DNA of 64,000 bases from Leucoraja ocellata (GCA_036785375.1 JAWMAR010000485.1:1364001-1428000); one strand, 5' to 3'. Counted from the first letter of the stretch, positions 40 through 54,590 are shown. The notes: generated by a model not told the origin, from the sequence alone. Translations and numbers: made by a program.

Positions 40-760
40 CTTTTTGATGCGTATTAATGACCTGGAGTACTGTACTGATTGCTCGATCAAAGTTTACTGT
101 TGACGCAAAACCTGAATGGGGTAAAGGTTGAGTAGGTAATACACAAAATACTGGAGTAACGCAGTGGGTCAAGCAGCATCTCTGGAGAAAAGCAATGGGT
201 GATGTTTTAGGTTGAAACCTTTCTTCTTAGGTTGAGGAGGACAGTCGCAGGAAGAGGATGTGCAGTGGGGTATAGTGCATGGGTGCTGAAATTTAATGCA
301 GAAGAACTCTAAGGTATTGACAGGAAGAAGAGGGAAATGTTACAATTTTAGAGATTGAACGGCTGGAATCTGTGGGTATATATTGGCAAATTTTAGAGGG
401 TGGTGGGACAGGTTTAGAAGTGTGTTTTGGGGTTGAATGGGCCTCAATGTCCTTATTTTTTTAAACAGAAGAATATAAACAAAAGTTAGGAAATTCTGCC
501 ATATCTTCATAACACTTGTTAAAGCACAGCTAAAGTGTTAAATCATTCTGGACACCACCTGAAAGCAGAATATTGAGGTTTTGGAACGGGTTCAGCAGTA
601 TTTGACAAGGGAGGGATTTCAGCTGCCTGAATCAACTGGGCTTTCTCGTTTGGAGCAGATTTAATATTTGATTTATCATTTGATAGAAGTGCTCAAAATC
701 ATGTATGATTTTGGTAGGGGAGAAATTGTAAGGCAGAAAGGTCAGGGGCATGGGTTTAGA
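40..760 (+). mobile_element. Highly degraded CR1-type LINE RT remnant
   Basis: Decayed INDL and KF(A)DDTK-like codons near 45-110 and typical downstream CR1 RT motifs; many frameshifts. Confidence 0.5.
137..228 (-). mobile_element. Short Penelope-tail insertion with degenerate hammerhead core
   Basis: Family consensus ctggagtaac...gcagcatctctggag; flanking direct repeat aggttgagtagg (125-136) / aggttgaggagg (229-240). Confidence 0.75.
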
Positions 761-1287
761 AAACAAGAAGTAGTGCTGTGATTTTTATTATGCGGCAGGT
801 TATGTGACGTAAAGAAAAATAACGAGAAAGAGTAGAGGAATGTAGCTGATCCCATCGTTCTTTCAGAGTGCCACAGGTGATGGCTGACAGCCCTCCTCTT
901 GTTCCTCTCGATTGGAATACTTGGAAACAGCATAAAGATCGATCAGGTTACTGGCCTGACTCCAGTTGCAGGGAGACGCAGTTCATTATGCTACTAGTTT
1001 GAATGTGAGGGAACTAGTTGCCTTGTTAGTGATCTGCTAATGGTCCCAGGGTGTGACGTATGCTACTATACGTTGCGTGCAACTAGCCATGGCTTTTAGT
1101 CTGATGCCTAATCTATTTCTGGTGAATGCAAAGTTCTTGCCACAACTCGCTGTTTACAAGAGGTTAACATCCAGCAGCAGGTGACCAGGGCATGGATGCC
1201 ACAGGCTAAAGCACTGGCAGGTTGAGAACTGTCTGGTTTTAGTTTGGAGACTTTGGGTGAATCAGAGGGACTGGTGTGAAGCTTAAT

Positions 1288-1457
1288 GGGCCTGTCTCAC
1301 TTAGGCGATTTTTTGGGCAACTGCTGCAAAATTTCCAACATGTTGAATCATTTTCTGCGACAGTGGCGCCAATTTTTGCTGTCGTAGGTTTTGTAGTAGG
1401 TGAGTTAAAACTAGTCCCTGGCAGTCGCCTAAAGAGTCGCCTAAGTGGAACAGGCCT
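1288..1457. mobile_element. MITE (Harbinger/Kolobok-like), TIR GGGCCTGTCCCACT family
   Basis: Termini gggcctgtctcacttaggcga / tcgcctaagtggaacaggcc; internal caacatgttgaa palindrome shared with the elements at 38.4 and 41.6 kb. Confidence 0.75.
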
Positions 1458-1708
1458 TTAAGAAATGGGTTTCCTTCAGTGACTTTGGGGATTGTAATTC
1501 CTGTTGCTACATGGATGAGAAACAATGTTACCTCAAGTGGTAACACTTCCATCTAATGTGGCCTGAGAACTCTGAAGTGGGTCTGACACAGATGTCAAAT
1601 AGTGCCTCCAGGTGTTTAAAACAGCCTGTAGTACAGTTATAACTGAACAATAAAGGTCAGGTTGCACTGACAGTTTATGCTTGTCAACTGAAAGCTCTGT
1701 GGACGATA

Positions 1709-1840
1709 GGTGTAACAAAGAACTGCAGATTCTGGTTTAGATCGAAGGTAGACACACAATGCTGGAGTAACTCAGTGGGTGAGGCAGCATCTGTGGAGAA
1801 AAGGAATGGGCGGTGAGTTACTCCAGCATTTTGTGTCTAC
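1709..1840. mobile_element. Fold-back Penelope-tail insertion
   Basis: Minus-oriented arm followed by a short plus arm; 14-bp TSD ctctgtggacgata (1695-1708) / ctccgtggatgata (1841-1854). Confidence 0.75.
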
Positions 1841-3337
1841 CTCCGTGGATGATATATTCTCCAATACCTCTCCATGAACCTTTGACTGTAGGTGTATATC
1901 TATTGATGGAGTACACAGGTTGCTCTGTGTGATGCCATTGCTCCTTCCTGAATGACTGATTGCACCTGACCAGGTCAGACCTGACTGCAGGAATGAATTT
2001 ACAATCAGTTTAATATTGGCAATTGAAATCGAATGGTTGTCATTGCTTTACAGAGAGTAGAACTACATGGTGCAAAATCCGGATGCTCATGTGACTTTTG
2101 GTGGACAGAAGGTGGCACCACAGGCCAAGCTCCATCCATTTTATCGTGCATTCAAACCCACATTATGGGGTAGTTGTGTTCCTAGAAATGAATCCGTATC
2201 ACAGTTTTCCATAACACAAAGCTTCATCATCTGTGCAGGCATAGAGAAGCACAAGTTTGAAAAAGTACATATTTTATTTATTTACTTTTTTCACGTATAT
2301 TCCACGACAGAGAATTTATTCTGAAGGTCAAATTTCTGTTTAGTGTTTTGTGAATGCGGTAAAAGCGAATTTCCATTATGTCAATGACTGTAATGGAAGG
2401 ATCACCAGTAAATCACATGTGTGATCCCAGTATTGAATATAATTTGGTTTGTTGTGGGATCCTGTTGGAAAGGATGGTTGTTGCTAAAATAAAATTAACT
2501 TGCCTCGTGCATGCCTGCTAAAAATCGAATCCAGCCCCCCTTCCAGGCACCAGTCTCATTCTATGTTGTTAAGGTGCCTTCATCTCACAGAATGTCAGTG
2601 GCAGAGGATAATTCTGTTATTTGGTTTGTGGAGGCACCCTCCAGTGCAATGTAGTGATTGCACGGGATACTTGTAACCAGTTGTATTCTGCGAAAGGAAA
2701 GGCTATCTATCAGTGATGTGTTTTCATTAAAATGTGGCAGTGGAAGCAATGCACTTGGTCTCTATTGAACCAGCATTGCTATTAGAAGCAGCCAGAGATG
2801 GTTGTTACATGTTTATACCTGGATTTGTTCCATTATCAGCACCAGGAAAAGGTGGGGAAATGGATGAGAGGGTTCAAAATTGATCAGGGCAACGATAAAG
2901 AAGAGCAAAAGTGAGCAGGCAAAATGAGCAATGATGAAATAATGATAGGAATGGATGAGTGAAATAAAACGGAGGGTAGTGCATTGGAGCACGCAAAGGA
3001 GAACATAGTCAAATCCAATTGTTAAGATGAAATCCTCCTATCTTTGTGCTTAAAATATAATAAGACACAGCTGAAAATTAGCAGAAACTCTTCAAGCATT
3101 TTGCTGTTCTGCTGAATTACTACTTTGTTGCATAGGATCTTCCAAATACATCCTTTTTACCAAATGAAGATTTGGTAAGAATCTTTACGATTTTTAACCT
3201 TCTCTATTCGTCCTCCTCAAAGACAACTCTATTGATCAGTACCCTTCTAATTTAACAGGGTGCTGAGGGGTCCAGGCTTTTGTGTTCTGCTAACTTCGGT
3301 CACACCTATTCATTCCCTAAAAGTGGAAGAGTGGTGA

Positions 3338-3872
3338 ATGTAGAACAGTACAGCACAGGACCAGGCCCTTTGACTCACAATGTCTATGCCAAGTTAAACT
3401 AATCTCATTTACCACCATGTAATCCATATCCCTACATTCACTGCATATCCATGTACCTATCTAAAAGCCGCATAAATGCCCCTGTTGTATCTACGTCCAC
3501 CACCATCCCTGGTGTTCCAAGCACCCACCACTGTCTGTGTAAACAAAAAGTTGCCCCTTTAAAACGACATCTTTAAATTTTCCCCGCTAACTTTAAAGCT
3601 ATGCCCTCATGATATTCCCACTCTGGGACAAAGGTTCTGACTATCTACCGTATCTATGTCTCTCATAATTGTATATACTACTCTCAACCACTGACACTCC
3701 AGAGAAGCCACTCCAGGTTTGTCCAACCTTTCCTTATAGCTACATCTCTCTAATCCAGGCAGTGTTATTTTGAGCCTCGCCCTCTCCAAAACCTCCTTGT
3801 AATCGTGCAATTAGAACTGCACATAACACTCCGAATGTGATCTAACCAAAGTCCTATAAAGCTGCAACATGA
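3338..3872 (-). mobile_element. CR1 LINE 3' fragment
   Basis: ORF 3607-3810 (LPGLERCSYKERLDKPG) is CR1 RT C-terminal sequence; CR1-type tail. Confidence 0.75.
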
Positions 3873-4800
3873 CTCAGTGGACCATATCTAAAGTCTAAAG
3901 TTTATTGAATATCGAAGCAGGCACAAGGAAGTGCTTCTGTTTCCTTTGATTGCAAATTATTGAACTGACAGCCCAAAGAGGGTTTTGTTTTTGTGACAAA
4001 TCCTATTTACATGAATTACATGTACTTTTGCTTCCCATGGGAATGTTATCAGTCAGATTTGGAAACTAGCCACATTAGTACTATTCCATCAGAGGACCAA
4101 ATACATGGTCAATTCTGGCAATTTTAAAGCAGCATTTGTAGGATTAGATGGAAGTAGATTTAGAGAACCTCTGCCTGTGGCATAGACAACTTGACATGCA
4201 GCACGGTGTGTGTGAAGTGAAAATTGGAAGGATGGAGAGTTCTTGAACTCTGTAGGGTTGGAAGAGAATGCAGGTATGGGGAAGGATGAGACCATGCAAG
4301 TGTTTGGATGCAAGGATGAGAATTATAAATGGAGGTAATTGCAGACTGTGGCTGGTGCACCGTAAGCATACAGATGAACAATGGAATTAGGAGACCTGAA
4401 GTTGGGAAACATGCACCATTGTTCTGAAGCAATGTCCCACCCAGATGTTGTGCTCAATACTGCACAGTATTTATAATGGGTCAGGAGCAAGTTTCATATA
4501 TCCACTTTGCTCACACTACATGCTTTAAACCTACTAAGAGTTTGGCAGGTGCAGCAACAAATTCAAAGATGCTTCGGGCAAAGATTTGTGAAAGGTGGAA
4601 AGGGCGGCTCTGGGAACTCCTGCAAGGAGTTATGCTTGAGCAATAATATAGGTGGGCCAGTTCCCACCAATGTATCACTGACAGCATCACTGCACAATCC
4701 TGATCTTTGCCCATGGGGTACATTTGGCAAGTGGAATGCTAATACTTAGGGAAAAAGTGTTGCAATTCTCAGTTGCATTACAGCCAATGACACTGGTGAG

Positions 4801-4960
4801 GTTTTAGTTTAGATACAGCATGGAAAATGGTCCTTTGGCCCACCGAGTCCACGCCATCTGTCGATTACCTGTTTATACTAGTTCCATGTTATCCCACTTT
4901 CTCATCCACTTCCTACACATTGGGGGCATTTTACAGAGGCTAATTAAATGTGGGAGAGGA
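4801..4960 (-). mobile_element. V-SINE/HE1-like SINE 3' part
   Basis: gtttagatacagcatggaaa...ggcccaccgagtcc tail shared with other SINE copies in the window. Confidence 0.6.
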
Positions 4961-7287: not shown

Positions 7288-7849
7288 GTAAGAGCAGATC
7301 TGGATCACTACAGCAGGGCATGTCACTTCACACAGCACCTCCCAGCCATGGAGCACGAGGCCAGTGGTGTAACGGGGAATTTGGCAGCAAGTTTGCACAC
7401 ACAGAGGACCCAGAACCACACCGATATCGACCTGAAGAATGTCAGCTTTAATATGTTGGTTCAGGGAGAATTCTTGGCAGACGCTGGGAGAGAAAACTCT
7501 AGATCCCCTCATTAATTGTATGAGGTGGTTTTCACTGAGCTGAGAGAAGAAGGTGGGACTGAAAGACAGCCTTGGAGAGCACAGCACTCCCGTGGTAGTT
7601 AGTGCCTGGAATGGTGCTTAAACACATAACCACTGAACTCAACGTGTAGGTGCCATTTACTAAGCCACAGCTAATGAATTGGGAGTCAGGGAAAGTGCTG
7701 GCTTTCTCTTTAGGTTTAGCTTACAGTGTCCGGTGCAGAAACTATGTTTGTAGCTGAAGTGTGTAAGTGGAGCGGGATTATCAGTTGTCATTTATCCTGG
7801 GTGCTGGCCTGACCAGTATTGGTGCTCAGTAAAAATAAAGAATGCTAGT

Positions 7850-7995
7850 TACAAAAGAAAACACGAAGGGCCTTGAGTAACTCAACATGTCCAGCAGCAT
7901 CTTCAGAGAACATAAATAGGTGATGTTCGGGTTGGTTCCATTTTCTCCAGAGATGCTGCCTTTCCCGTTGAGTTATTCCAGCCCTTTGTGTTTTC
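7850..7995. mobile_element. Fold-back Penelope-tail remnant
   Basis: gagtaactcaac...cagcatc followed by inverted gatgctgcc...gttgagttattccagc. Confidence 0.65.
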
Positions 7996-9036
7996 GTTGG
8001 TGCTCTGTGCTTGTCCTAGACGTAAGGGAGGTGAGCTGTCATTGTCCGGCTCTGTGGCTATGATGCAGGGTCTGTCCCGATGCTGTCAGGGTGTGGCGAG
8101 GGAGCCGGAAAAACCTCGCGTGTTTGGGGATCCATTCAGTGTATCAGCCCACTGTGGCTCAGCTTCACCACCGTGGAGAAGCACGTTGCGTTGTCCTGGG
8201 AGGAGGAAGAGGAGGTGGGAGAGTTGCACAAGAGCCCGGGTTGTGTTGTCAGGGGCACTCCTCCTTGGAAAGGTCTCTGTCTCTGATCAGTGCTGGAGAA
8301 AGGCAGGAGCTGATGAGGCGCATGGCAGGTTGATATTGTTGTGGCTGAATCTCTGTATCGACTCTACCACCTCCCCCTTCCCCCGCTACCTTTTATCCAA
8401 AATTCCGTGGTGACCTTGAACTACTGCAAGTCCACAGCCCTCGGAGGCAGCTAATTCAAGAAATTAAGAACAAATTTGTCTTCGCCTCATTCTCAAATGG
8501 CTTGCTGCTACTGTAACCCCTCGCCAATATCAGGGACACACCCTCATCATCTACTAACGAGCCTTCTCGAGAATCTCCTTAAATGAACAAAAGAGGCCGT
8601 GAACCCTTTGAGTAAAGGCTTTTTTTGTAAACGGACTTAATCAACTTTGTGATGATTAGTTAAATATAACTCTACAAAAGCATAGATAAAAATGTGGGAT
8701 GTGGGCAGAGAATAGTAAAACATTAATGCAAGACTTGGCATGCACCCAGGTAAAATATGCCGAATATTCTCCCACGCTCATCCATTCAATGAGCTGAGTC
8801 CGGACAAGCTATTGCTTCTGCCCCAATCATTCTGGTTGTCAATAACTATTGGGACTATTGGGGAGGTGCAGTGTGTGTGGCTGATGTTTTAAACATACAC
8901 ACCCTCGGAATATGTCCTATTTTTTTTATCAGAACCCGAGGAGTTTAGGAATCGAACCTACATATTAGAGAGGTTAATCAGGTTACCAATTGTCTGTGGT
9001 GCTGCGTTTTAAATGTGTTCTCATTCCCTGTCGCAG

Positions 9037-10080: not shown

Positions 10081-10449
10081 CAGGGCTCTCACTTAACTTT
10101 TTTTCTCTGTCAGCCGGGCAACCTTGGCAGCTTTTTAGGTTGCCAAATGACAGTTTAAGTGGTCAGTTAAGACAGCTTGCATGACGCGTGCGATAATGTG
10201 CTCGGACGAAATGCGTAGTTACCAGTCGGAATTATGCTCAATGAAGCATTCACATATTATTTCTGCTTCAAATAAAGTCACAAACTAAACATATTCACCT
10301 ATCAAGACATGATATATACCACAATGACATGCAGCAAAATTATAATACAGTATCTCAACTCTTTTTACACGTTGCAATAAATGCAATTTCTATTATTTCT
10401 TTCCACTTCCAAACAAAAATGTGGTTGGATTATTCAGCGTATGATCAAC
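10081..10449. mobile_element. hAT-like non-autonomous DNA element fragment (another CAGGG-start fragment at 9761-9900)
   Basis: Starts CAGGGCTC with internal ggcaacc/ggttgcc motifs; no partner TIR found. Confidence 0.35.
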
Positions 10450-10888
10450 CTCGGTGAGACCAAGCGCAGGCTTGGCGATCGCTTCGCACAACACCTCCAC
10501 TCAGTTCGCAATAACCAACCTGATCTCCCGGTAGCTCAAAACTTCAACTCCCCCTTCCATTCCGAATCAGATCTCTCTGTCCTGGGCCTCTTCCATGGCC
10601 AGAGTGAGGCCCACCGTAAATTGGAGGAGCAGCACCTCATATTTCGCTTGGGCAGTTTACACCCCAGCGGCATGAACATTAACTTCTCCAATTTCAGGTA
10701 ATCCCTGCTTTCTCCTCCCCTTCCCAGCTCTCCCTCAGCCCCACTGTCTCCGCTTCTTCCTTTCTTCTTCCCGTCCCCCCCACCCTCACATCAGTCTGAA
10801 AAAGGGTATCAACACCAAACGTTGCCTATTTCCTTCGCTCCATAGATGCTGCCTCACCCACTGAGTTTCTCCAGCATTTTTGTCTACC
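10450..10888 (+). mobile_element. Penelope-like element: GIY-YIG endonuclease C-terminus plus 3' tail with degenerate hammerhead
   Basis: GETKRRLGDRFAQH...EEQHLIFRLGSLHPSGMN* followed by the same ~100-nt tail as the short insertions, linking them to this family. Confidence 0.88.
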
Positions 10889-10889
10889 C

Positions 10890-11090
10890 ATTCACACAAG
10901 TTCTGTTATCCCACTTTCCTCACCCACTCCCTACACATTAGGGGCAATTTTACAGATACAAGTTAACCTACAAAGCCAATGTGTCTTTGGGATGTGGGAG
11001 GAAACCCACACGTTTGCAGGGGGAATGTGCAAATTCAACACAGACAGTGCCAGAGGACAGGATCGAACACAGATCTCTGGCATGTGAGGC
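10890..11090 (-). mobile_element. V-SINE/HE1-like SINE
   Basis: Reverse V-domain (tttgggatgtgggaggaaaccc) and B-box ggatcgaac. Confidence 0.75.
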
Positions 11091-11259: not shown

Positions 11260-11450
11260 TGGGGCAGTACATTGGCCATAAAGTTGCTGCCTAAAAGTGT
11301 CAGAGACCCGGAATTGATCCTGAATATGGGTGCTGTCTGTATTGAGTTTGCTCCTTTTTCCTTTGATCGCATGGGTTTTCTCCGGGTGTTCTTGTTTCCT
11401 TCCACATTCCAAAGGTGTGCAGGAAGCTATTTCAGACCCAACCCAAAACG
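11260..11450 (+). mobile_element. V-SINE/HE1-like SINE head plus V-domain (inverted duplicate at 11893-12016)
   Basis: tRNA-like head, gtgctgtctgt...gagtttgc...ggttttctccggg...cacattccaaag. Confidence 0.75.
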
Positions 11451-11618
11451 TAATACTAGTTCTATCCCACACATTAGCGATGCAAGTCGAGGGTCAAGAG
11501 TGTTTTATTCTCTTTTGTCCCAGTTAGAACAATGAAATCCTTACTTGCAGCAGCACAACAGAATATGTAAACATAGTACTCTGTAAACAATGTTATAAAA
11601 GAGAAAACAAAATGGTGT

Positions 11619-11765
11619 NNNNNNNNNNNNNNNNNNNNNNNNNNNNNNNNNNNNNNNNNNNNNNNNNNNNNNNNNNNNNNNNNNNNNNNNNNNNNNNNNN
11701 NNNNNNNNNNNNNNNNNNNNNNNNNNNNNNNNNNNNNNNNNNNNNNNNNNNNNNNNNNNNNNNNN
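11619..11765. other. Assembly gap (147 N)
   Basis: Run of n. Confidence 1.
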
Positions 11766-11787: not shown

Positions 11788-11912
11788 GTGTGTAGGAAGG
11801 AACTGCAGATGCTGGTTTAAACTGAAGATAGACACAAAAATCTGGAGTAACTCAACAGGTCAATCAGAATCTCTGGACAAAAGGAAAATATTAAGTTTTG
11901 GGTTAGGTCTGA
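11788..11912 (-). mobile_element. Penelope-tail copy
   Basis: gtgtaggaaggaactgcagatgctggtttaaac...ctggagtaactca consensus. Confidence 0.7.
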
Positions 11913-12473
11913 AATAGGTTCCTGCACACCTTTGGAATGTGGAAGGAAACAAGAGGACCCGGAGAAAACCCATGCGATCAAAGGGAAAAGGAGCAAACTC
12001 CATACAGACAGCATCCATATTCTCTTCTACTATCCATCCCCAATTTCATTTGTGTAACCTTTTGAAAGTGGTTGTTGGGTTTATTCAACTGGGTCATTGT
12101 AGTATGGAGCAATTTGGTCAGTGTAAACAAGCCAAGCTCTGAGTAAATCAAGGATACATTTCTATAAGAAAATACTTCTTCCATAATTTCGCTCTTCTCT
12201 TCCAACTCATTAATCCCAACAATTTTCCCTTTTTGCCAAGTAAGAAGGGTTGTTGGATTATGCTATTTTAAATGTCTTAATTTCAATGGCATGTGAGTTT
12301 ATTTGTGGCTCACATCTCTAAGCAGTCATCCATACCTTGATGCTTTTGTTCCCTTGACATTGATGTATGGATTTGGGTTGGGTGGGCAGGGTGGGGAGAC
12401 ATACCATAATTGTTTTGGAACTGCTCCTGATTATAGGTTTGATGAATGCACCTTGTTGTTAAACCATTCATAG

Positions 12474-12854: not shown

Positions 12855-12955
12855 AGTCTGAAGAAGGATTTTGGCCCAAAACGTTGCCTATCTCCTTCGC
12901 TCCATAGATGCTGCTGCACCTGCACCTGCTGAGTTTCTCCAGCATTTTTGTGTAC
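12855..12955 (+). mobile_element. 101-bp Penelope-tail insertion with hammerhead-like core, perfect 14-bp TSD
   Basis: cagcaataacactt at 12841-12854 and 12956-12969; insert starts agtCTGAAGAagg. Confidence 0.88.
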
Positions 12956-12985
12956 CAGCAATAACACTTGCTCCGTAAACTGCAG

Positions 12986-15769: not shown

Positions 15770-16340
15770 CTTGTGGTTCGTATACAATATCGGTCTTCAT
15801 TAAGGAAGGGCGTAAATGTACTGGAAGCAATTCAAACAAAGTTTACTAAACTGATACCTAGGATGGTCATAAGATGCTGGGGTAACTCAGCGGACAGGCT
15901 GAGAAGGAATGGGTCGAGACCCTTCTTTAGCTGTCCTGCTGCCCCAGCATTTTGTGACTATCTTCAATTTAAACCGGCATCTACAGTTCCTTCCTACACC
16001 TGATACCTAGGATGGGTGGGTTGTCTTATGAGGAAATGTTGGATAGATTACATCTCTACAGGAGTTGAGAGAGAGGGGTCTTGATTGAAATATAAGATTT
16101 TGATCGGGTAGATGTGGGAAGGATATTACCTCTTGAGAGAATCTAGAGCTTGGTGTTGTACATTAAAAATAAACAGTTGTCTGTTTAAATCCTGTTTTTG
16201 AGGGTCATGAGTCTTCATGATTATCTTTGAACGACGGTTGAAGCAGAGTAAATGTCCTCGGGCCAGCAGTGGATAGATTCTTGGTCAACAAAGAGATGAA
16301 CGGTTGCTGCAAATGGATGGGATTGTGGGGCTGAGGTTTC
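15770..16340 (+). mobile_element. Degraded CR1 3' fragment hosting a Penelope-tail insertion
   Basis: LRKGVNVLEAIQTKFTKLIPRM in ORF 15713-16003. Confidence 0.7.
15867..15999. mobile_element. Fold-back Penelope-tail insertion, perfect 16-bp TSD
   Basis: ctgatacctaggatgg at 15851-15866 and 16000-16015. Confidence 0.85.
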
Positions 16341-16577: not shown

Positions 16578-17162
16578 GTAGGGATTTTCATGGGATCCTT
16601 ACAAATCTCTTAAATAAGAATTAGCCATTGCAATATCAACAAATGCATCTTTTTGGATCTTTTGCAAGGAAAGCAGTTTGTAGGATGTAAGGGGCAAATA
16701 CTATATAAACTGTTCACACGACAGTTTGAGTTCATATTAACTCTAAAATGTTCAATTATTTGGGAAAGTAGGAAAACAATCCCAATAATCCATAACAAAT
16801 TTGCTGCTCCCCAGCACAATGCGAAAATGGTCTCACCAGCATGGGATCCCAATAATTATGAACATTTAAGGGGAAAAAAACTACAGGTGCTGGAAAAATA
16901 AAATAAAAACAGAAAATGCTCATCAGGTCAGACTGTATCTGTGGGAACAGAAATACAGTTAACATTTCAGGTTGGAGACTCTTTACTAAAACTGGGAAGG
17001 AGAAAAAAGAAGCTCATTATGCTGCAGGATGTCTCTGAGGTAAACCATTTTCTCCCACTTTTCTGTTTTGCCTGTAATTGCCTCACAGTCTCTGGAGAGC
17101 AAAGCGCTCCTTATTTTTCTCAGCCAAGTCACTGACCTTGGCCCATGTCCCTTTCCCTCCAG

Positions 17163-18527: not shown

Positions 18528-19513
18528 TATAACCATATAACCACATAACAATTACAGCACGGAAACAGGCCATCTCGACCCTTCTAGTCTGTGCCGAACA
18601 CATAATCTCCCCTAGTCCCATATACCTGCGCTCAGACCATAACCCTCCATTCCCTTCCCATCCATATAACTATCCAATTTATTTTTAAATGATAAAAACG
18701 AACTTGCCACCACCACCTTCACTGGAAGCTCATTCCACACAGCTACCACTCTCTGAGTAAAGAAGTTCCCCCCATGTTACCCCTAAACTTCAGTCCCTTA
18801 ATTCTCAAGTCATGTCCCCTTGTTTGAATCTTCCCTACTCTCAGTGGGAAAAGCTTTTCCACGTCAACTCTGTCTATCCCTCTCATCATTTTAAAAACCT
18901 TTATCAAGTCCCCCCTTAACCTTCTGCGCTCCAAAGAATAAAGCCCTAACTTGTTCAACCTTTCTCTGTAACTTAGTTGCTGAAACCCAGGCAACATTCT
19001 AGTAAATCTCCTCTGTACTCTCTCTATTTTGTTGACATCCTTCCTATAATTAGGCGACCAAAATTGTACCCCATACTCCAGAATTGACCTCATCAATGCC
19101 TTGTACAATTTTAACATTACATCCCAACTTCTATACTCAATGCTCTGATTTATAAAGGCCAGCACACCAAAAGCTTTCTTTACCACCCTATCTACATGAG
19201 ATTCCACTTTCAGGGAACTGTGCACAGTTATTCCCAGATCCCTCTGTTCACCTACATTCTTCAATTCCCTACCATTTACCATGTACGTCCTATTTTGATT
19301 TGTCCTGCCAAGATGAAGCACCTCACACTTATTAGCATTAAACTCCATCTGCCATCTTTCAGCCCACTCTTCCAACTGGCATAAATCTCTCTGTAGACTT
19401 TGAAACTCTACTTCATTACCCGCAACCCCACCTATCTTAGTATCATCTGCATACTTACTAATCCAATTTACCACACCATCATCCAGATCATTGATGTACA
19501 TGACAAACAACAG
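18528..19513 (-). mobile_element. Young 5'-truncated CR1 LINE (RT C-terminus, YADD), nested in an older + strand CR1 (about 17990-19760)
   Basis: 255-aa ORF 18743-19510 FVMYINDL...SKYADDTK...; tandem ataaccat tail. Confidence 0.93.
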
Positions 19514-19598
19514 TGATTTTTTTGAAATTCTCTATCCATGGAAGCTGTGAAGACCTGAAGGTGGGTACATTCGGTACACTAAGGGAATCAAATGAGTT

Positions 19599-25691: not shown

Positions 25692-26757
25692 GTATGAATG
25701 TTTCCCCGAATGGTGGATGTGGAGATTGGATCTGGAAACCAATGGGCACTGGGAATGCTCAGCTGATCACTCAGCATTTGTGGAGAGTTGATAGGTCTTT
25801 CACTAAAAATGGTAACAGTTTCTTCTCCAGAACTGTTGCCTGACCTGTGGATTTCTATTTCAAGCGCATTGATTAACAGCAGCAAATGGTTAATGGGATT
25901 AGTATTACAGCTGGAAAGGGAACACGGGTTATCCCTGGTTTACAAATGCCCAACCTGTACATACAAGCCAGTGTTTGGTAACCATCAGTATAGCTGTTAG
26001 GCTGCAGGTGACTGTTCTGTGCACGTTGCCACGTTGAAGCTAAGAAGAATACATTCTTCTTAATATGTTGATGTTTATTTTGTGGATCTTATCTAAGAGA
26101 CAGGCGCTTATGGACAGCTGCAGTGTCCTTTTTAAAACCGTCAATAACATGTAAAATCTCACTACAGTAGGTATTATCATAATATTATTATTAGCCTGTT
26201 GATCCCTGCCACATCACGAGCAGAACCTGTATGCTGAAAATATCTTGGATCTAGTGAATTTATAAATCAGATGGATAGTATTTGCTGCCTTTTGTGTCCA
26301 TCTTGTTACAAATATTGACCTCGCTGTCATCGTCCGTCCTGAAAAGGACGCAAGCCTCCGTCCGGCAACAATCAGTGGAAGCCATCACTTGTCGCAATAG
26401 ATGATGGTGGTAGTAGGATTAGCTCGGGATACTTCCAGTTTCCAGCCCCGTGACGTGGATGCTTCTGCTATGGGGCCATTGTATTTGCTGAACTGGCATT
26501 ATTCCTCTGGAAACATAATACAGATGCTGGAATCTTGAGTTGAAATTGTCTTTTGTCTCCTTCGTCACTCTCCATCCATCTGCCAATCAGCCACCCTTGT
26601 CTACTTTTTTTCCAGCTTCCCCCTACAATTTGAAAAAGGGTCTCAACCAGAAGCATATTTTCGCCACAGATGTGACCTGACCTGCTCAGTTCTTCCAACA
26701 CTTTTTTTTATTCGTCTGTAAATCCATTTTGGGCTGAGCCACTCTGTAGTTGGACTG

Positions 26758-27275
26758 TAATAAACGAGTTCAGTAGTCCGACTGCGCATGCCCAGGTCAT
26801 AGATCCCTCGCAATAAACATTCTCGGCAACTGTGCTGCTGCATGTATACAGACCCGCATTTCATCCGTAGTCGGGATCGAACCAGGGTCTCCAGCTCAAC
26901 TCTGCCTGTCCCACTGGGTTAACAGACAGCCCTAGACTGATGGGACACCGGCCTGGAGCAGTGGCGGCCACGGCTTACAGCCAGTGCGGAGAAGAAGCGC
27001 TAACTACATTGCTCCGGGCCAGTGTCCCGTCAGTCCAGGGTCACCCCGGACATCTCCGGCCGCCCCCGGACAGGGATGGGACACTCCGTAGGGGACGGTC
27101 CAGTAGCAATTCAACAGCGCTTGCAACGCCAAAGGCCCAGGTTCGATCCTGACTAGGGATGAAACGCATGTCTGTATACATGCAGCAGCACAGTTGCTGG
27201 GAATGTTTATTGCGAGTGACCTTTGACAAATCCCATAATTCCTTGTGTATTTCGGAATACCGAACTCGCTTATTA
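26758..27275. mobile_element. Unclassified nested fold-back element
   Basis: Three levels of inverted repeat: 26758-26781/27252-27275, 26807-26887/27136-27216, 26929-26963/27007-27040. Confidence 0.75.
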
Positions 27276-28761: not shown

Positions 28762-28886
28762 AGTGTAGGAAGGAATTGTAGATGCTGGTTTAAACTGAAG
28801 TAGACACGAAAAACTCAGCAGGACAGGCAGCATCTCTGGAGAGAAAGAATGGGTGATGTTTTGGGTCAAGAACTTCAGACTGAAGA
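28762..28886 (-). mobile_element. Penelope-tail copy with short inversion at the CUGA core
   Basis: Consensus tail ending in palindromic cttcagactgaag. Confidence 0.7.
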
Positions 28887-28967
28887 GGTTGAAAACCAGC
28901 CATAAAACACAATAACTGGAACTGTGTGTTATTCAACTAAGGGCAGAAATCAGAATCATGTGTTCAT

Positions 28968-33251: not shown

Positions 33252-34122
33252 CTGAGAAACAAAGGAGAGGAAGAGTCAGAGGCATCTTAACGTTTAAAAA
33301 AAAAACCCACATTCACGCTACAATTTCAGTAATATTCACCTTTTCTTTTTGCCTGAAACCACAGGATTTGAATACCCGAATTAGGAAGTAATTACAAGTT
33401 TATGAAATTAGATTACGTAGTTCATGCAGAAATAGACCAATAGGTCTATTCCTGAACTACAACATTCTACATATTACAAATATCGAATGAGAACATTTAC
33501 ACGCTAAGGTTTTTTTTTTTAATTAAAGAGGGTGAAACGTTACCTTAGAGCGGGAGAAATCAAAGTCAACGTCCCAGGGAGATCAAAAGCAAAATTATTT
33601 GATATTCTCTATAGGACTTTGCTTGATTTCCTCCCTTAAGAGTAACGTGTTCTACCAGCTTTTTAATTCAATAAATGTTCTCATTTGATATTTGCATAAT
33701 TGTAATATTAAATATAAAATACTGCAAACAGCAGGCCAGTCATATGTGCAGAAATGTCCCCCTTCCCACTCCATAGATGCTGCCAGATCTGTCTTCAGCA
33801 TTTTTAAAATTCAAATTATGTTTAAAAGATAAAATATTACTTGTGAATGTATTACTGGATTGGGGGAAATGCAGAGAATTGATAGCTGTCAAAACAGCAG
33901 GGAGCCGAGGGAACTTGCCAATGTAAAACAACAGTTTAGTATCTGGCCTGGACCAGTAGGTTAACGCAAAGGACCTGCCCATCTTTTGCTGAAAGTTTTT
34001 CCTCAAAATGCAAATCTATAATTTGTCATACAAAATGGTGAGAATGCAACTACTCTAATAATACTGTATTTCCTTGTTGAAGAGATCATGCATCATCCAA
34101 ACTTTGTATAGCAGTCACTGAC

Positions 34123-38716: not shown

Positions 38717-38861
38717 TAGATTCTCCGTCAAATAAAACGTGGCATTGTGGTCCACTTCTACCTAATCCAAAAAAAACTTGCTAGTTAAATCTGACTTTTA
38801 AATGATAGTGGACTTCTGCAGTTCTTTCCTACACCAACCTTTAATAGCCTGCACATAATTT

Positions 38862-41567: not shown

Positions 41568-42094
41568 GGGGCTGTCCCACTGCGACTAATCTGCGAGTTT
41601 AGACGAGTTTGCCCTCGATTCAAACTCGCAGCATGATCAACACGAGGTCCTAGGAGGTCCAATGAGGTCACTGGAACTCTCCTTCATGCTCGAGGGAGGT
41701 TTCCGCATACTCGCGGCCTCTGAAAAATTTTCAGCATGTTGAAAAAATTTCCGAGAGTAAAATTTGGTCGGCTTAACTCATAGTGCAGTGGAGTGGGGTC
41801 GCTATTTACAGGCAGTCGAGGGCAGCCGTAGGCAATCTCCTTCGCTGACCGGGCATTTTGATTGGCTCATTGGAGTTTTCAGGACCAGGGAAAACCGACC
41901 GGTAGGTTAAATGCCCGCTAAACTTTATTATACTCCGAGACCTAGCTGAGGCCACGAGTATTCAGGAACTTCCCTCGAGCATGAAGGAGAGTTCCAGCGA
42001 TCTCATAGGACCACGTGTCGACCATGCTGCGAGTTTGAAGGTCGAAGACACTCTTCTAAACTCGCAGATTAGGTTGCCGCAGTGGGACAGCCCC
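41568..42094. mobile_element. 527-bp MITE with long TIRs, TTAA flanks
   Basis: ttaa|ggggctgtcccactgcg...cgcagtgggacagcccc|ttaa; about 140-bp imperfect arms; internal ttcagcatgttgaa. Confidence 0.9.
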
Positions 42095-42562: not shown

Positions 42563-42888
42563 GGATAAACACAAAATGCTGGAATAACTCAGCGGACCAG
42601 GCCGCATCTCTGGAGAGAAGGAATGGGCGACATTTCGGGTCAACCCGAAAAGTCACCCATTCCTTCTCTCCAGAGATGCTGTTGGTCCCGCTGAGTTACT
42701 CCAGCACTGTGTGACTAACTTTGGATTAAACCAGTAACTCAGCGGGACTGGCAGCATCTCTGGAGAGAAGGAATGGGTGACTTTTCGGGTCGACCTGAAA
42801 TGTCGTCTATTCCTTCTCTCCAGAGATGCGGCCTGTCCCGCTGAGTAACTCCAGCATTAAACCAGCATCTGCAGTACCTTCCTACACA
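42563..42888. mobile_element. Four-arm double fold-back Penelope-tail insertion
   Basis: TSD ctgctattaaaa (42551-42562) / ctgctatcaaaa (42889-42900); arms oriented -,+,-,+. Confidence 0.85.
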
Positions 42889-43915: not shown

Positions 43916-43976
43916 CTGCATAAAATTCAATCACTCAGCATTAACAAAACACATACAAAGACGAGTACTGAAGAAT

Positions 43977-44200
43977 TTAAGAAGGAACTGCAGATGTGGG
44001 AAAATCGAAGGTACACAAAAAAGCTGGAGAAACTCAGCGGGTGCAGCAGCATCTATGGAGCGAAGGAAATAGGCAACGTTTCGGGCCGAAACCCTTCTTT
44101 CAGACTGAAGATGGGGTTTCGGCCCGAAACGTTGCCTATTTCCTTCACTCCATAGATGCTGCTGCACCCGCTCAGTTTCTCCAGCTTTTTTGTGTACATT
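43977..44200. mobile_element. Young fold-back Penelope-tail insertion with back-to-back hammerhead cores
   Basis: Perfect 15-bp TSD cgagtactgaagaat (43962-43976, 44201-44215); about 95-bp near-perfect inverted arms. Confidence 0.92.
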
Positions 44201-45373: not shown

Positions 45374-45624
45374 CTATCAAGACAAGACAATTTGTATTGG
45401 GAAAGGGTAAAGTAGAATAGCTCCAGTAGATCATTGTAACATATGGTGAATTAAAACCTTTCAAAGTAGCTCCCAGGAGCAACAAGAAAAAAAAATCTAA
45501 TGTCAAGCCAATTAAATAAATACAGAAGACTGCCGAAAGCTTCATCAAAGAAATGGTTTGAAATTTAGTTTAGGGTTTGGCAGGCATCACAGCCATCAAG
45601 AATGGAGGGAATTAAGACATCAAT

Positions 45625-46500
45625 ACAAGGAACTGCAGATGATGGTTTATAAAAAAAATAGTTTGAATAATTCAGCAGGCAGGCAGCATCTCTGGAGAAC
45701 ATGGATTGTTGACGTTTCGGGCTAGGGCCCTTCTTCAGACAGATTGTAGTAGGGGAGGAGAAAGCTGGAGAGGTTGGTGTAGGACAATGCTAGGCAAGTG
45801 ATATGTGGATATAGGTGAGTGGGGTTTGATGGACAGATTGGTGGACAAAGACAAAATATAGAAAGATGACTCAAGCATATCAGATAATGAAAGGAGATCC
45901 GCAAATTGTGAAGCCAGAGGAAGGATATAGGTGGAAGGAGACGGGAGAGATCGTGGAAGAAATGGGTACACACCCAAGTGGGACAGAAAGGGGGAAGGTG
46001 GGGAGGGCCAGGGAGAGGCTGGTTATGTAGGTCAGTTACCTAAAAATGCAGACTCCTACGAAGCTTTTCAAAAAGGGGGGGGGGGGGGGTGGCGTAATAG
46101 GATTACAAAAAATGTATGTGAAATAATGTGCATGCAGCGCACATCACAAGCGCAAAGTCCCTGGGTCCAGAGCCCGATTAAGGGGCCTGGAAGCTCTGGG
46201 ACTTTAGATGCTCTCTGGTGCATTTTTTCCCTTCCGGATTTTTTAAACTCTGGGGATAAAAAGGGGGGTGCGACCGACCCATCGCACCCCCCCTTCAGGC
46301 GGCCATGAAATGGAAAATTTATATTCCGTTTTGGTTTCTTACAACCCAATGGTATAAATATTGAAGTGCCATTCCTCCAGTTTTCAATGACTCAAGCAGA
46401 ATACAAGGAGCTTCTCCATCAGTTTAAGCTACCCAAAGTGCTGTTTTTCCAGTTTTAACCTACCCAAACTGAATACGAGGTGCTGTTCCTCCAGTTTGAG
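45625..46500 (-). mobile_element. Penelope-like element 3' end (tail plus rearranged GIY-YIG fragments), interrupted by a hAT-like fragment at about 46050-46305
   Basis: KLEEQHLVFSLG on - at about 46460-46497 and IFRFGFLQPNGINIE on + at about 46320-46367; hammerhead core in the tail. Confidence 0.75.
45708..45742 (-). ncRNA. Minimal type I hammerhead ribozyme motif (Penelope type), sense in KATNB1 pre-mRNA
   Basis: 5'-CUGAAGA-A-GGGC[CCUA]GCCC-GAAAC-GUC-3' at 45738->45711; all core nucleotides present; stems I and III minimal; activity not shown. Confidence 0.65.
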
Positions 46501-50220: not shown

Positions 50221-50292
50221 CTGACAGGGGTGCTCTCTACTTCTGTGCAGCTCACCATCTTAAACTTTTCTAGATCCCAAAACTTTATCGTT
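50221..50292 (-). CDS. KATNB1: KATNB1 exon TIKFWDLEKFKMVSCTEVESTPV
   Basis: ttcAG|...|GTACAT, 72 nt. Confidence 0.95.
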
Positions 50293-50819
50293 CTGAAAGA
50301 GGGAATATAGTGTTAAGTACCTGTGGAACATCAAAGCAAAACCACATTTCCAATTGTTATTAGACCCGCACACAAATAGCCTTTCCATTGGATAGACAAA
50401 TAAAAAGTTTGCTAAAATTTGAGGTTTCATCACAATGGAAAGAAAAAATAAGTTCTATCTAGCACATTGCAAGTAGTAGGGGTTAAATGTATCCGTTTGC
50501 TTCCTAAATAAAATCCACTCTTGCATATAATTTAGGCGAGTCAATAGTCACAGTGCATTTAACAGCTCGAGGGACAATGGAGATGCAAAATACAGTTAAT
50601 ATAGGTTCAGCATCCAAGTCCTTTGCTATCTATTATTAAGAAGGGTCAGGACACAATTAAATATCTCTTTTCTGATCTGTGGAGACTATGTCACAGCAAA
50701 GGTTTTCGATTATCAATGTTAAGGCAATGTTAAAAGTGCAAGATTTCTGGTAACATAGTTATTGATGACCAGGGCATGTCAAACACCTTTTCAGTCATTA
50801 AAATACAACTAAAATATGT

Positions 50820-51135
50820 ATTCCCCTGTAACCCAGGCAGCCAATTTGAATTTAAAGTAACAAAAATAACAAGTTTGTGACCAGTCATCTATTTCAATAA
50901 TGTTTTATGGGATAAATGTTGGCCATGACTCCAGAATGACGACTTAAAAGTAGACCGATAGGATATTGTGCCATTTACTCAAGAGAGCATTCAGAGCCTC
51001 GGGTTAATATCTCATACAAAATATAGAGTCCAAACAGTGCAATACTACCTCAATACTGCTAATGACTGTGCTGTTGTGAGAATTAAGGCACGTAATCCAA
51101 AATACCGAGTGCCAATGAATCAGTCATAACTCACA
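50820..51135 (-). mobile_element. Degraded DeuSINE (SacSINE1/AmnSINE1-like); weaker remnants at about 7500-7675 and 22470-22600
   Basis: gggataaatgttggcca...gcctcgggttaatatctcat...acagtgcaatactacctcaatactgc resembles the recalled Deu-domain consensus. Confidence 0.55.
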
Positions 51136-51502
51136 TCATTTGGAGTGTATATCATTTATGAACAATTGAATAAAAGCAATAAAATGTGGATAGTGAAAAC
51201 ACTGAATTTAGTCATTGCCAATATTAGTGCTTTGTATCTTCTACCTTCAAAGCATGTTAAACTGAGAAGTGTGTTTCACATTCAGCGTGGGCATAACTAT
51301 CGCATAATTAAAGTTAATTTAGATCTTGGGCTCCTACAAGCATAATTTATATACATAAAGGGTGCACCGGCTGTTCAAAATCATTGAATATCACCACAGA
51401 AAGTACATTAAACAAAGCAAAAGGTATAGTATTAAAAAAATAATTTTGATTACCAGATGAAATTGTGGGCAATACTAATTTCAAAACAACATCTGTCCTG
51501 AC

Positions 51503-51618
51503 CTGTCTGAGCTGCCGGAAGCCAAGAGATACTCATTCGGGTGGAACTCCACAATATTTACAGGTCCAGTGTGATCTGTAAATTCCGTTAGAATTTTTGC
51601 AGCTGATAAATCCCACAG
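51503..51618 (-). CDS. KATNB1: KATNB1 exon [38 protein letters not shown]
   Basis: tttcAG|...|GTCAGG, 116 nt. Confidence 0.96.
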
Positions 51619-52479
51619 CTGAAAAAAAGACAGAGGAAAAAAAAGGCTTCTAAAGATAACTCTTTCTACATTCAATAATTTAGATAGTGGACAGGTAGTA
51701 GATCAAGGAAAGAGGCTTAAAGCACATTTACCAACTTTAATTTTGATGGTATTACTCAGTTGAAGGCACCTTCCTACAGGCAATTACTTCTTAAAAAATG
51801 CACACAAGAAATGGCAAAAGTGTTGGATACTAAATTGGCTCTTTTTCCATCTTTGTATCCAATCTTGACAGGATGCATTTTCACATCACATTAAGTGAGT
51901 ACTGAACAGTCTCCTTATGTTGTGCCAAGCAAAATAGCTCAAAAAGGGAAAAGAAAGATAAAGGGAATATATTTTCTGTTTAATCAAAAGTTTCATACTT
52001 TTCAAAATAAATTAATCCATAACACAATGGATATTTTGACCGAGGATCAATTAACCTAGTTAGACAAACGTTAATAGGACAGCTTGAGTCCTGAATTAAT
52101 TTGGATTACCAAAAATCCATTGTCCAAGTCAACGTTCAAGCAATTTACTAAAAGACCCAAAGCAAATTTGACACCTACTGCTGTGGATGTCAATTAAGTG
52201 TTCACAAACAGAAGATTGCATAATGCTGGGGAAGCAAATATAATGCAAAGACCACATTTATCATCCATACTTTCTTGCACAAAAAGGTAAAGTGGTGGTG
52301 AAGCTCAAGAAGCAGTATTCAACAGGAAGTTACAAGATTTTGACACCTACAATAATGCAGTCATTATCCTTGTAGACACATGGGTCACTTTTATCAGTGT
52401 TTGGGCCCATGTTGGATTATCAAAGAAAGTCTGAAACAACATGTTTTATCAGCATAACCAGAAAACAGAGCTATCTTAG

Positions 52480-53062
52480 ATGCCACCGTTCCCCAGCCCC
52501 GCACGGTCCGATTTTACCTGATCCCCAAAATCCATAAAACTAACTGTCCTGGCAGACCCATTGTTTCTGCCGGCTTGTGTCCCATGGAACTTATTTCCAC
52601 ATACCTCGACTCCATCCTATCCACCCTAGTTAAATCCCTCCCTACCCAAGACCTCACACGCTCTTCGCCTCCTCCATGACTTCGGTTTTCCAGGCCCCCA
52701 TTCCCTCATCTTCACCATGGATGTCCAGTCACTCTACACCTCCATCCCCCCACCAGGGGGGTCTTAAAACCCTCCTTTTCTTCCTTAACCGCAGAACCAA
52801 CCAATCCCCGTCTACTGACACTCTCCTCTGCCTAGCGGAGCTGGTCCTTACTCTTTGTAGGGGACGTCGAACAATCTTTGTTTGAGGTGTACCGTGGCCC
52901 TATCCCCAAACTCTACCTACGCTACATCAATGACTGCATTGGTGCTACCTCCTGCACCCGTACAGAACTCACTGACTTCATCCATTTCACCACTAACTTC
53001 CATCCGGCACTCAAATACACCTGGACCATTTCTGACATCTCCATACCGTTTCTAGACCTCAC
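52480..53062 (+). mobile_element. Penelope-like reverse transcriptase fragment, internally deleted
   Basis: RFYLIPKIHK..CPGRPIVS, FTMDVQSLYTSIP, LYLRYIND(C)IG, FHPALKYTW, IPFLDL; the GVAMG segment is missing. Confidence 0.88.
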
Positions 53063-53691
53063 TCGAGTGTAATAACTTAAAAGCTTCTTGACACACAAGT
53101 GGATGCCAAACTGCATACTCTAGTGTTGTATGAGGTGTTTTTCATTCATTTATTCATTTGATGAGGCCATCACTGGCAAGGACATCATTTACTGCTTACC
53201 TAGAGGAAATTAGGGATGACCATACCAGTAAAACCAAAAGTATTATTTCACTAATAATTTGAAATATATTAAACTTTCTGAATTTTGTATTGTGCCATTT
53301 CATGCTGTTCACAATCATTGCAGTACCATCCCAAATAATGACCTCTGACTTTCCTTCTCAATTGAAAGTGGAACACAAGAAGAAAATACAGCAATATATT
53401 ATCAAGATTTTCCATGCTCCACTTTGATCTTCTCACGTTCATCACTCAACATAATATGTTTTGGCATTCAGCATGTAATCCATACTTAAATACCCATCAA
53501 GAGAAATTAACTTTATTTTAAACAAAATAGTTGTTATAAACAAGGTATTACCGATTGTAACTCAGTAAAAGCCTTGGGAGCTTTTCTTGTACACGGATTT
53601 TCCAGAGGTTAAGAAAGTATTTCAGCCAAATTCAGTAAATTAATTGTTTGTATTTGTCGCATTCTTATTCTGCAAAGCTCTAAGTAAATAC

Positions 53692-53775
53692 CTTCACGGT
53701 GCTATCATCTCCAGCAGCAGCAATCCATCGCCCATCAGGACTGAACCTTAAACACCGCACGGCATTTGTGTGTCC
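53692..53775 (-). CDS. KATNB1: KATNB1 exon [28 protein letters not shown]
   Basis: tgcAG|...|GTATTT, 84 nt. Confidence 0.96.
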
Positions 53776-53829
53776 CTGCAAAGGCACCAGTGACAGTTTA
53801 TGGTGTAGCACTAACTATATCAACTATTT

Positions 53830-54590
53830 TGTACTTCATGAGGTCAAATGCAAGGGGGGAATTTACAGTTATTGGCAAGACCCTTAGCGGCATTGACGTG
53901 TGGATGGATCAAACAAGTCCATAGCCCACTGTAAGTTGCAAGACAAGTAGATGGAGTGATAAAGAAGGTGTATGGTATTCATTGTTGTGCATTGTGCACA
54001 GGAGTCTGGAAGTCATGTTGGAAATTTATAAAACGTTGGTTAGGATACATTTGAAGTGTTATATGGAGCTCTGGTCACCCCTTTGCAGGGAGAGATTTTG
54101 GGGAGGCGGCAGAAGAGGTTTAGCAGAATGCTGCCTGGAATTGAGAGCATTAGAAACTAGAAACAAGCAAAAGCTTTTTCCCTGGGTTGATATGTCAAAG
54201 CCAAATGTCAATGGCATAGCTTTACAGTCAGAGAGGGAAGTTTAAAAAGAGATGTGCAATGTAGACTTTTTTTTAAAACAGAGTGGTGGGTGCCTAGAAT
54301 GTTCTGCTAGGGAAGCTGGTAGAAGCAGATATAATAGAGGTGTTTTGTCAGACTTTTAGATAGGCATATGGATATGCAGGGAATGGATATGGATCACGTG
54401 CAGGCAGAGTTCATCTGTCAGTCTGAAGAAGGGTTTCGGCCCGAAACGGTGCCCCTTTCCTTTGCTCCATAGATGCTGCCGCACCCACTGAGTTTCTCTA
54501 GCAATTTTGTCTACCTTCCAGAGTTCATGTGCAGGCAGGCAGAAGATACTGTAGGCCATAAAGCCTGTTCCTGTCCTGTTGTTCTATGTG
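53830..54590 (+). mobile_element. Degraded CR1 3' part
   Basis: RSLEVMLEIYKTLVRIHLKCYMELWSP in ORF 53982-54245. Confidence 0.75.
54415..54518 (+). mobile_element. 104-bp Penelope-tail insertion with hammerhead core (cleavage triplet mutated to GGU)
   Basis: 10-bp TSD cagagttcat (54405-54414, 54519-54528); CTGAAGAagggtttcggcccGAAACggt. Confidence 0.85.

Follow-up and report, generated by a model that had tools for sequence, protein, structure and literature searches.

Short hammerhead-bearing inserts in Leucoraja ocellata DNA may be run-off stumps of a Penelope-like element

We analysed a stretch of 64,000 nt from Leucoraja ocellata (GCA_036785375.1, JAWMAR010000485.1:1364001-1428000; hereafter the window), in which a preliminary description, made from the sequence alone, had recognized many short repeats with a hammerhead ribozyme motif and had proposed that they form a retrozyme-like family. 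These repeats are very probably the terminal segment, or pseudo-long terminal repeat (pLTR), of an endonuclease-bearing (EN+) Penelope-like element (PLE). The explanation that best covers all observations, to which we give a probability of about 0.6, is that they are stump insertions of this element, made when its reverse transcriptase (RT) ran off the RNA at a predicted transcription start on the 5' edge of the hammerhead. A common 5' boundary and the pairing of two different 3' ends within single inserts point to this origin.

The repeats as ends of a Penelope-like element

Copies of the unit were searched with blastn and with an nhmmer profile built from 13 arms of the copies already listed, whose own scores are partly so by construction. 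The highest score in 20 Markov-shuffled 64-kb windows was 10.2 bits. The unit was found at all 12 positions previously named, the best arm at each reaching 38-117 bits against this shuffled maximum, and four extra copies were recovered: 16880 (25.5 bits), 26630 (33.7), 33750 (17.3) and 25750 (12.0, marginal). We use short names for the inserts, namely 1710 (1709..1844), 7850 (7831..7996), 10791 (10450..10888), 11790 (11790..11930), 15860 (15867..15999), 26630 (26514..26707), 42560 (42563..42888) and 45622 (45622..46035), and we number the unit from the A of TCAGT (+1), which is position 10793. The 16 inserts take up about 2.9 kb of the window, at about one insertion per 4 kb, and the unit is indeed very abundant, as had been stated.

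Target-site duplications (TSDs) of 10-16 bp abut the element in 10 of the 16 copies. Eight of these belong to the 12 copies listed before (137, 1710, 7850, 12855, 15860, 42560, 43977 and 54418), so that the TSDs of the preliminary description are confirmed while its count of seven is not; the other two are 16880 and 26630. When TSDs were scored as length minus twice the number of mismatches, eight of the 10 reached 10-16, and a score of at least 10 was seen in 6 of 297 random position pairs; 1710 and 26630 scored 8-9, which 44 of the 297 pairs also reached. A TSD was not found at 10791, 11790, 28763, 45622 or 25750, and 33750 has only a doubtful, AT-rich one. Insertion with TSDs by the RT and EN of a PLE, as first proposed, is supported.

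The Penelope-like origin is borne out by insert 10791, in which the unit is contiguous with the EN C-terminus. The whole of 10450-10888 had been read as a GIY-YIG open reading frame (ORF); its first part is confirmed as the C-terminal 83 codons of the EN (10450-10698, with the stop 10450..10701, plus strand), 5'-truncated within the GIY-YIG motif, whereas 10702-10888 is pLTR and not ORF. This pLTR (plus strand) comprises a pyrimidine-rich part (10702-10790), TCAGT (10791-10795), a mutated hammerhead (10796-10823) and a short 3' end at 10888. The EN fragment is closest to proteins of the little skate (Leucoraja erinacea, 76-78% identity) and aligns to the C-termini of relatives P0001 and P0003, which match Pfam GIY-YIG below the cut-off (E 0.008 and 7.6e-5); a Pfam search with the fragment itself gave no match. 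Upstream of the point where it breaks off, 179 contigs from a related organism run on into EN sequence.

The Penelope RT fragment noted near 52480 is also real (52479..53063, plus strand; tblastn E 7.8e-57). It carries frameshifts and an internal deletion near 52855, and matches at 72-79% shark-type proteins, including Stegostoma, that lead to full-length RT-EN ORFs. The fragment is isolated, with no pLTR, EN or TSD attached, and nowhere in the window is RT linked to the unit; this fragment and the short insert 54418 are separate events. No full-length chondrichthyan PLE ORF was found in protein searches. Judging from sequence motifs the element is probably a Neptune: a CX2-5CxxC linker between RT and EN is present in P0002, in P0003 and, among 49 long RT relatives having a C-terminal YIG, in 45, although the linker region lies outside the PLE fragments of the window and Nematis shares the linker. 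The copies fall into three sequence groups, each with short and long forms; in group A, the long copy 10791 groups with the short inserts (minis) 12855, 43977 and 54418 (bootstrap 97).

A common 5' boundary at TCAGT

We next compared the 5' ends of 14 mappable inserts, with boundaries set by hand and with 25750 and 33750 excluded as too decayed. The 5'-most point falls within -3 to +6 around TCAGT in 8 of the 14, in 6 of the 10 that are TSD-bounded and in all four single-arm TSD-bounded inserts. The P value of this clustering lies between 7e-5 and 1e-4 when the null is an exponential fit to the 14 lengths, and is 0.012 against a mixture of short and long inserts. The earlier view that short copies are more than random 5' truncations is thus supported by a non-random 5' boundary. 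TCAGT agrees with the metazoan initiator consensus.

The 5' ends of these eight inserts lie 25-34 nt upstream of the predicted hammerhead cut (+31). Since they are upstream of the whole hammerhead, the templates must have been uncleaved; a 5' end defined by cleavage was considered and fits the left arm of 1710 alone.

The same boundary appears in contigs from related organisms aligned to 10390-10900 (94,162 in set X1 and 8,016 in set X15, with at most 0.56 of words in common). Among the loose ends listed (13 of 1,072 rows), at least 13 X15 contigs start exactly at 10793, the A at +1, with unrelated flanks. In the same list a loose-end consensus AGTCTG, preceded by non-pLTR letters, occurs at 10817 in both sets, near which contig alignments break off because copy 10791 has a mutated hammerhead. 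In both sets depth over the unit is about 10-fold the EN median and 2.5-3.7-fold the EN maximum, as summed contigs and not as copy number. Two raw-read sets from non-relatives, X22 and X23, gave 5 and 0 reads.

Two 3' ends and head-to-head arms

At the 3' side units end at either of two points, about +100 and about +131, which lie some 30 nt apart and differ by the PLE tail. Most longer copies consist of inverted arms joined head to head, whose 3' ends differ; this dominant layout is absent from the preliminary description. All six TSD-bounded two-arm inserts (1710, 7850, 15860, 26630, 42560 and 43977) have one tailed and one untailed outer end (P 0.016 if ends were independent at 0.5). An inverted copy plus tail has been described for ordinary PLE insertions (PMC8557442, PMC3846280).

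The junction centres vary, with the palindrome TCAG-N-CTGA at +1 in 43977 and 28763, the stem II palindrome at +18 in 42560 (twice), and microhomologies. In 15860 and 26630 the two arms are not nested; thus both were copied from RNA and neither is a fold-back of the other. This rules out simple fold-back self-priming as a general rule, though it is possible for 43977, 1710 and 7850.

The tail is predicted to pair with the unit body around a 4-bp hairpin (43977-44060 and 28763-28830, minus strand; 42820-42887, plus strand), and the modelled pairing is a candidate RT start-site structure. Matches of 16-20 nt to the tail only, possibly tail-only insertions, lie at 38815-38834, 56144-56162 and 56946-56961.

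A proposed origin by internal RT start and run-off

In Anolis, both strands of the target are nicked and extended by the PLE protein, the two internal sites at which RT begins bound the tail, and hammerhead cleavage is dispensable for insertion (PMC11167929). PLE promoter and start sites have been placed within the pLTR (PMC2377424, PMC6765202), which makes the pLTR an mRNA leader too, and in Adineta the pLTR contains the initial 12-22 codons (PMC3846280). We infer, at roughly even odds, that the minis are products of RT that started at internal leader sites and ran off the 5' end of the RNA. A staggered target cut of 10-16 nt would yield two primers, of which one or both would be extended; when both are, each would use a different one of the two RT start sites. 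As the pLTR sequence would also stand at the head of the mRNA, the 5'-most start sites would give a cDNA of 100-130 nt ending at the first base of the RNA. Two such run-off cDNAs may then be joined head to head at short palindromes or microhomologies; otherwise a single insertion would result. Longer copies would come from start sites farther down tandem read-through RNAs together with ordinary 5' truncation. The Anolis PLE requires RNA to +172 of the ORF, with RT starting at +111-118 (PMC11167929). Because the minis end at RT start sites and such a PLE requires RNA farther downstream, they would by analogy be poor templates, devoid of the downstream RNA for protein binding, and mostly dead ends. 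Neither the run-off model nor the pairing of start sites with DNA ends was found in the literature searched, with Repbase, Dfam and subscription papers outside reach.

Several points weigh against this origin. The biochemical precedent is a Poseidon element, whereas the present one is probably a Neptune. The ORF start is placed inside the unit by analogy; the ATG frame there, open through the tail in 43977 and without an N-terminal protein match, is stopped in tailed arms such as those of 11790, 15860 and 1710. Under a very short exponential (mean 30), the P value of the 5' clustering rises to 0.05 for the 14 inserts and 0.09 for the 10 TSD-bounded ones, and the count itself depends on hand-set boundaries and leaves two decayed copies aside. 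The three group A minis form a clade of their own beside the long copy 10791 (bootstrap 88), which is what a lineage of minis alone would be expected to do. The excess of unit over EN depth could come in part from several subfamilies with a common unit. Finally, TCAGT doubles as a candidate splice acceptor and as a strand of stem I; as a start it is predicted, and the sole possible RNA set consisted of contigs flagged 'probably DNA'.

Alternative origins

An unlikely alternative is that TCAGT is a hot spot of 5' truncation: RT moving along the 3' pLTR of a tandem transcript would stop or join at TCAG-N-CTGA, on account of the palindrome, of hammerhead or protein binding, or of the beginning of the C-rich tract, and no transcription start would be involved. 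Heavy 5' truncation is known from PLE insertions, whose inverted junctions carry palindromes (PMC8557442, PMC3846280), and here the junctions of 43977 and 28763 fall on TCAG-N-CTGA and that of 42560 on the stem II palindrome; moreover, 6 of the 14 inserts end elsewhere, and significance is weak under the short exponential. However, all four single-arm TSD-abutting inserts end at this point too, although they lack a second arm that could anneal; the contigs break exactly at +1; and a hairpin would arrest RT at the 3' foot (about +23) rather than past the 5' side.

A non-autonomous, ribozyme-headed mini-element appears quite improbable. Solo units would be transcribed from an internal promoter, or exist as processed or circular RNA, and be recopied in trans by the PLE protein. 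This would fit the discrete 5' boundary and the perfect TSDs on solo units, the great excess of unit over EN in contig depth, the position of the group A minis apart from the long copy (bootstrap 88), and a few joints in head-to-tail order, running from 10883-10888 back into 10817-10838, each in single contigs of a related organism. PLE pLTRs are able to act in trans (PMC3846280), and Xenopus retrozymes are pLTR-like (bioRxiv 2026.07.22.740005). However, the ends are off the cleavage site, with the left arm of 1710 as sole exception, 2 of 11 arms retain an intact hammerhead core, and each of the three sequence groups contains both short and long forms. Since junction centres vary among inserts (+1, +18, microhomologies), the palindromes are not copies of one master. 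The Anolis PLE, moreover, needs RNA to +172 although its RT starts at +111-118 (PMC11167929).

The retrozyme-like, separately propagating family of the preliminary description is likewise not supported. Like animal non-LTR retrozymes (PMC7229834; bioRxiv 2026.07.22.740005), the units are non-coding, carry a type I hammerhead, are related to PLE pLTRs and have TSDs longer than 4 bp, and solo monomers are common in both; Li et al. (bioRxiv 2026.07.22.740005) include one chondrichthyan with retrozymes. Retrozymes, however, are head-to-tail tandems processed to circular RNAs, whereas the present units are solo or head-to-head, are shorter (about 100-130 nt) and have ends that are not set by cleavage but lie 25-34 nt upstream of the cut. 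No array of two or more head-to-tail units with complete hammerheads is present in the window, where the sole unit tandem (42585-42856) is a pair of palindromes that lack the CUGA core. The inserts thus do not show two of the features by which retrozymes are defined, tandem units in head-to-tail order and ends produced by cleavage; in addition, long and short copies share the same sequence groups, and the inverted-plus-tail anatomy is that of an ordinary PLE. Pattern scans of viral and metagenome contigs returned 0 loci.

It is very improbable that the boundary is a 3' splice site, with the pyrimidine-rich pLTR as a retained 5'-UTR (untranslated region) intron (GT at 10698, AG at 10793-10794) whose end would fall at helix I, like that of the D. 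virilis intron (PMC4209133), and minis derived from spliced or spliceosome-bound RNA: two groups show AG|GTA at the stop codon of the EN (10698 and, on the minus strand, about 46030) and a pyrimidine tract plus CAG precedes the core (10698-10794, plus strand; about 46030-45742, minus strand), but spliced templates predict a common exon 1 before the unit where flanks are unrelated, no joint of 10697 to 10795 is among the 15 of 64 joints listed, and the donor match is weak beyond +3 and maybe dictated by the last codons. A PLE intron could also exist without bearing on the 5' boundary.

The hammerhead motif and its decay

The unit contains a CUGANGA core from +4 followed by an extra base, stem II from +12 to +23, and GAAAC-GUH up to +31. 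The minimal type I hammerhead motif ascribed to it is supported, as the core boxes, the extra base after A9 and the palindromic 15.2-16.2 are the majority state in 10 aligned arms. The start given for the unit, CUGAAGA-A-stem II-GAAAC-GUH, holds as a majority motif, but only 2 of the 11 arms that span the core, the right arm of 43977 and 45622, have it intact. Insert 15860, cited for its stem II, lacks GAAAC-GUH wholly, and the CUGA half is missing from 1710, from all four arms of 42560 and from the right arm of 7850. In the contigs of a related organism, G8 and G12 account for 93% and 85% of summed depth. Helix II has 4 bp; helix I has about 2 bp in the two younger groups and 5 bp in the old 16880 copy.

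Two of the stem II positions previously reported are exact (54431-54442 and 45719-45730), while the other two are shifted and lie at 44114-44125 and 15911-15922. The covariation claimed for this stem was not significant (score 0.261, against 0.210 in shuffled alignments). Variation is mainly at one pair (U-A in 4, U-G in 4, C-G in 1), and a second varying pair (G-C in 6, A-U in 2) occurs in decayed copies. The cells of helices I and II are paired in 82% of cases against 18-42% for a slid alignment, with a covariation score that 50 of 500 shuffles matched. An Rfam scan gave no hammerhead match, and sub-threshold Rfam matches of the palindromes to miRNA hairpins were rejected as hairpin artefacts. 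Eight units showed no excess fold stability against shuffles (z -0.81 to +0.91), and the hammerhead fold was not obtained among predicted monomer and dimer folds of three arms.

Anatomy of the individual inserts

Four inserts are single-arm minis with TSDs. Mini 137 (137..228, minus strand) has a short 3' end, a 5' end at about +4/+6 and a decayed hammerhead core (TSD 125-136/229-240, 12 nt with 1 mismatch). Mini 12855 (12855..12955, plus strand) begins exactly at A+1, has a short 3' end and a mutated G12, and lies in a perfect 14-nt TSD (12841-12854/12956-12969). Mini 54418 (54418..54518, plus strand), with its 5' end at -2, is also short-ended and has a mutated U16.1 (TSD 54405-54417/54519-54531, 13 nt with 1 mismatch). 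The old, divergent 16880 (16880..16996, minus strand), absent from the earlier list, is tailed, starts at about -3 and has a 5-bp stem I; its TSD is A-rich (16868-16879/16997-17008, 12 nt with 1 mismatch).

Among the two-arm inserts, 43977 (43977..44200) is a near-perfect palindrome whose arms are 93% complementary around TCAG-N-CTGA at +1; the left is tailed, the right is short with its intact core at 44105-44133, and the TSD is perfect (43962-43976/44201-44215, 15 nt). Insert 15860, with a perfect 16-nt TSD (15851-15866/16000-16015), joins a short-ended left arm (about -1 to +96), from which GAAAC-GUH is deleted, to a tailed right arm (about +60 to +131). The left arm of 1710 is inverted and tailed, with its 5' end at +31/+32, the predicted cleavage site, and the right arm runs short-ended from about +66 (TSD 1699-1708/1845-1854, 10 nt with 1 mismatch). 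The decayed 7850 has an inverted tailed left arm reaching to about +16 and a short-ended right arm (TSD 7819-7830/7997-8008, 12 nt with 1 mismatch). Insert 26630, likewise new, pairs an inverted tail-only arm of about 26 nt with a direct arm that extends from about -100 as far as the short end (TSD 26499-26513/26708-26722; 11 nt with 1 mismatch, or 15 with 2). Insert 42560 has four arms, arranged as two tandem palindromes of 150 nt, each with its centre at the stem II loop (+18) and without the CUGA core; its outer ends are short on the left and tailed on the right (TSD 42551-42562/42889-42900, 12 nt with 1 mismatch).

The remaining copies are without a clear TSD. In 28763 (28763..28890, minus strand) an inverted tailed arm reaching to about -2 meets, at the TCAG-N-CTGA palindrome, a short remnant in direct orientation. 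Insert 45622 (minus strand) is a long single arm with about 290 nt of pyrimidine-rich pLTR, an intact core (45738-45711) and the tail; its 5' boundary is approximate. The copy at 25748..25868 (25750) is heavily decayed and probably two-armed (12 bits per arm), and that at 33750..33804 (plus strand) is a decayed partial copy with approximate boundaries. Insert 11790 combines an inverted tailed arm to about +15 with a rearranged direct arm from +2, and is partially repeated by an inverted duplication at 11414-11455. Around it, 11322-11455 and 11889-12022 form an inverted duplicate (94%), containing a SINE-like (short interspersed element) piece and part of the PLE unit, on the two sides of an N gap (11619-11765); this may be a genuine rearrangement or an effect of assembly.

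Other features of the window

The window has the composition of vertebrate-like genic DNA (GC 41%), with one gap of 147 nt, and contains exons of a kinesin gene (Pfam E 3e-35), which we take to be KIFC3. Mini 12855 with its TSD (12855-12969) lies about 20 nt upstream of an apparent kinesin splice acceptor. A candidate ribozyme resembling that of hepatitis delta virus is present in one copy at 26412-26489 (minus strand), its end lying 10 nt away from the TSD that bounds insert 26630 (26514..26707), and without an ORF behind it; it scores 28.6 bits with the Rfam CPEB3 model against a gathering threshold of 35 (E 0.0018 in a whole-window scan), and in the model P1 appears intact and P2 and P3 decayed. 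RT fragments of other retroelements, not PLE-related, occur at 18743-19531 and 57609-57998 (both minus strand; RVT_1 E 9e-6, zf-RVT E 6e-9), and long inverted repeats outside the unit at 26796-27227, 41586-42072 and 60483-63099 (arms of 76-95 nt, 81-93%).

Discussion

The inserts share most of their anatomy with canonical EN+ PLEs (PMC3846280, PMC8557442): a C-terminal GIY-YIG EN followed by a pLTR with a hammerhead, strong 5' truncation, TSDs, a head-to-head inverted copy with a junction palindrome, and a 30-40 nt tail at one end. They differ in TSD length (10-16 bp, against 8-10 bp in Adineta), in that most are only 90-330 bp long, and in the piling of their 5' ends at one base, of which no description was found in the accessible parts of these two papers. 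With the Anolis Poseidon element PAc (PMC11167929) they have in common two tail-bounding 3' ends about 70-100 nt downstream of the hammerhead cut, insertion apparently from uncleaved RNA with extension of both target strands, and a hammerhead that is not the predicted minimum-energy fold, in line with a protein-assisted ribozyme. PAc, however, belongs to another clade, and neither run-off minis nor a pairing of start sites with DNA ends is in the main text of that study.

The motif itself resembles the minimal type I hammerheads of metazoan PLEs (PMC4209133) in its core boxes, the extra base between 9 and 10.1, the G10.1-C11.1 pair and a palindromic 15.2-16.2 without a helix III loop; in both cases the genomic motifs mostly occur singly and in association with truncated PLEs. 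The present helices differ from those of that survey: helix II has just 4 bp, and in the two younger groups helix I has about 2 bp. The accessible parts of the survey contained no shark or skate example.

The element class, the hammerhead, the tail and the inverted structures are already known, and the families are probably already in Repbase or Dfam. What is offered here is a lead on mechanism, since the tandem and inverted structures of PLEs and their one-sided tail have been called undefined (PMC8557442). The inserts link an in vitro result (PMC11167929) to genomic anatomy, through a 5'-end peak at one base and the combination of a tailed and an untailed end. A caution follows for surveys: solo minimal hammerheads with TSDs can be mistaken for retrozymes.

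More tentatively, and at somewhat less than even odds, batoid genomes may preserve, as fossils, very many copies of a Penelope 'strong-stop' product. RT would have begun within the mRNA leader and run off a start site that doubles as the first strand of the hammerhead, and the two ends of one staggered cut would have been primed at the two different RT start sites. If this is true, one rule would cover pLTRs that stand alone, palindromes of head-to-head arms, the tail at one end only and the many single minimal hammerheads of animal genomes, and the start sites of PLEs would be mappable from DNA alone.

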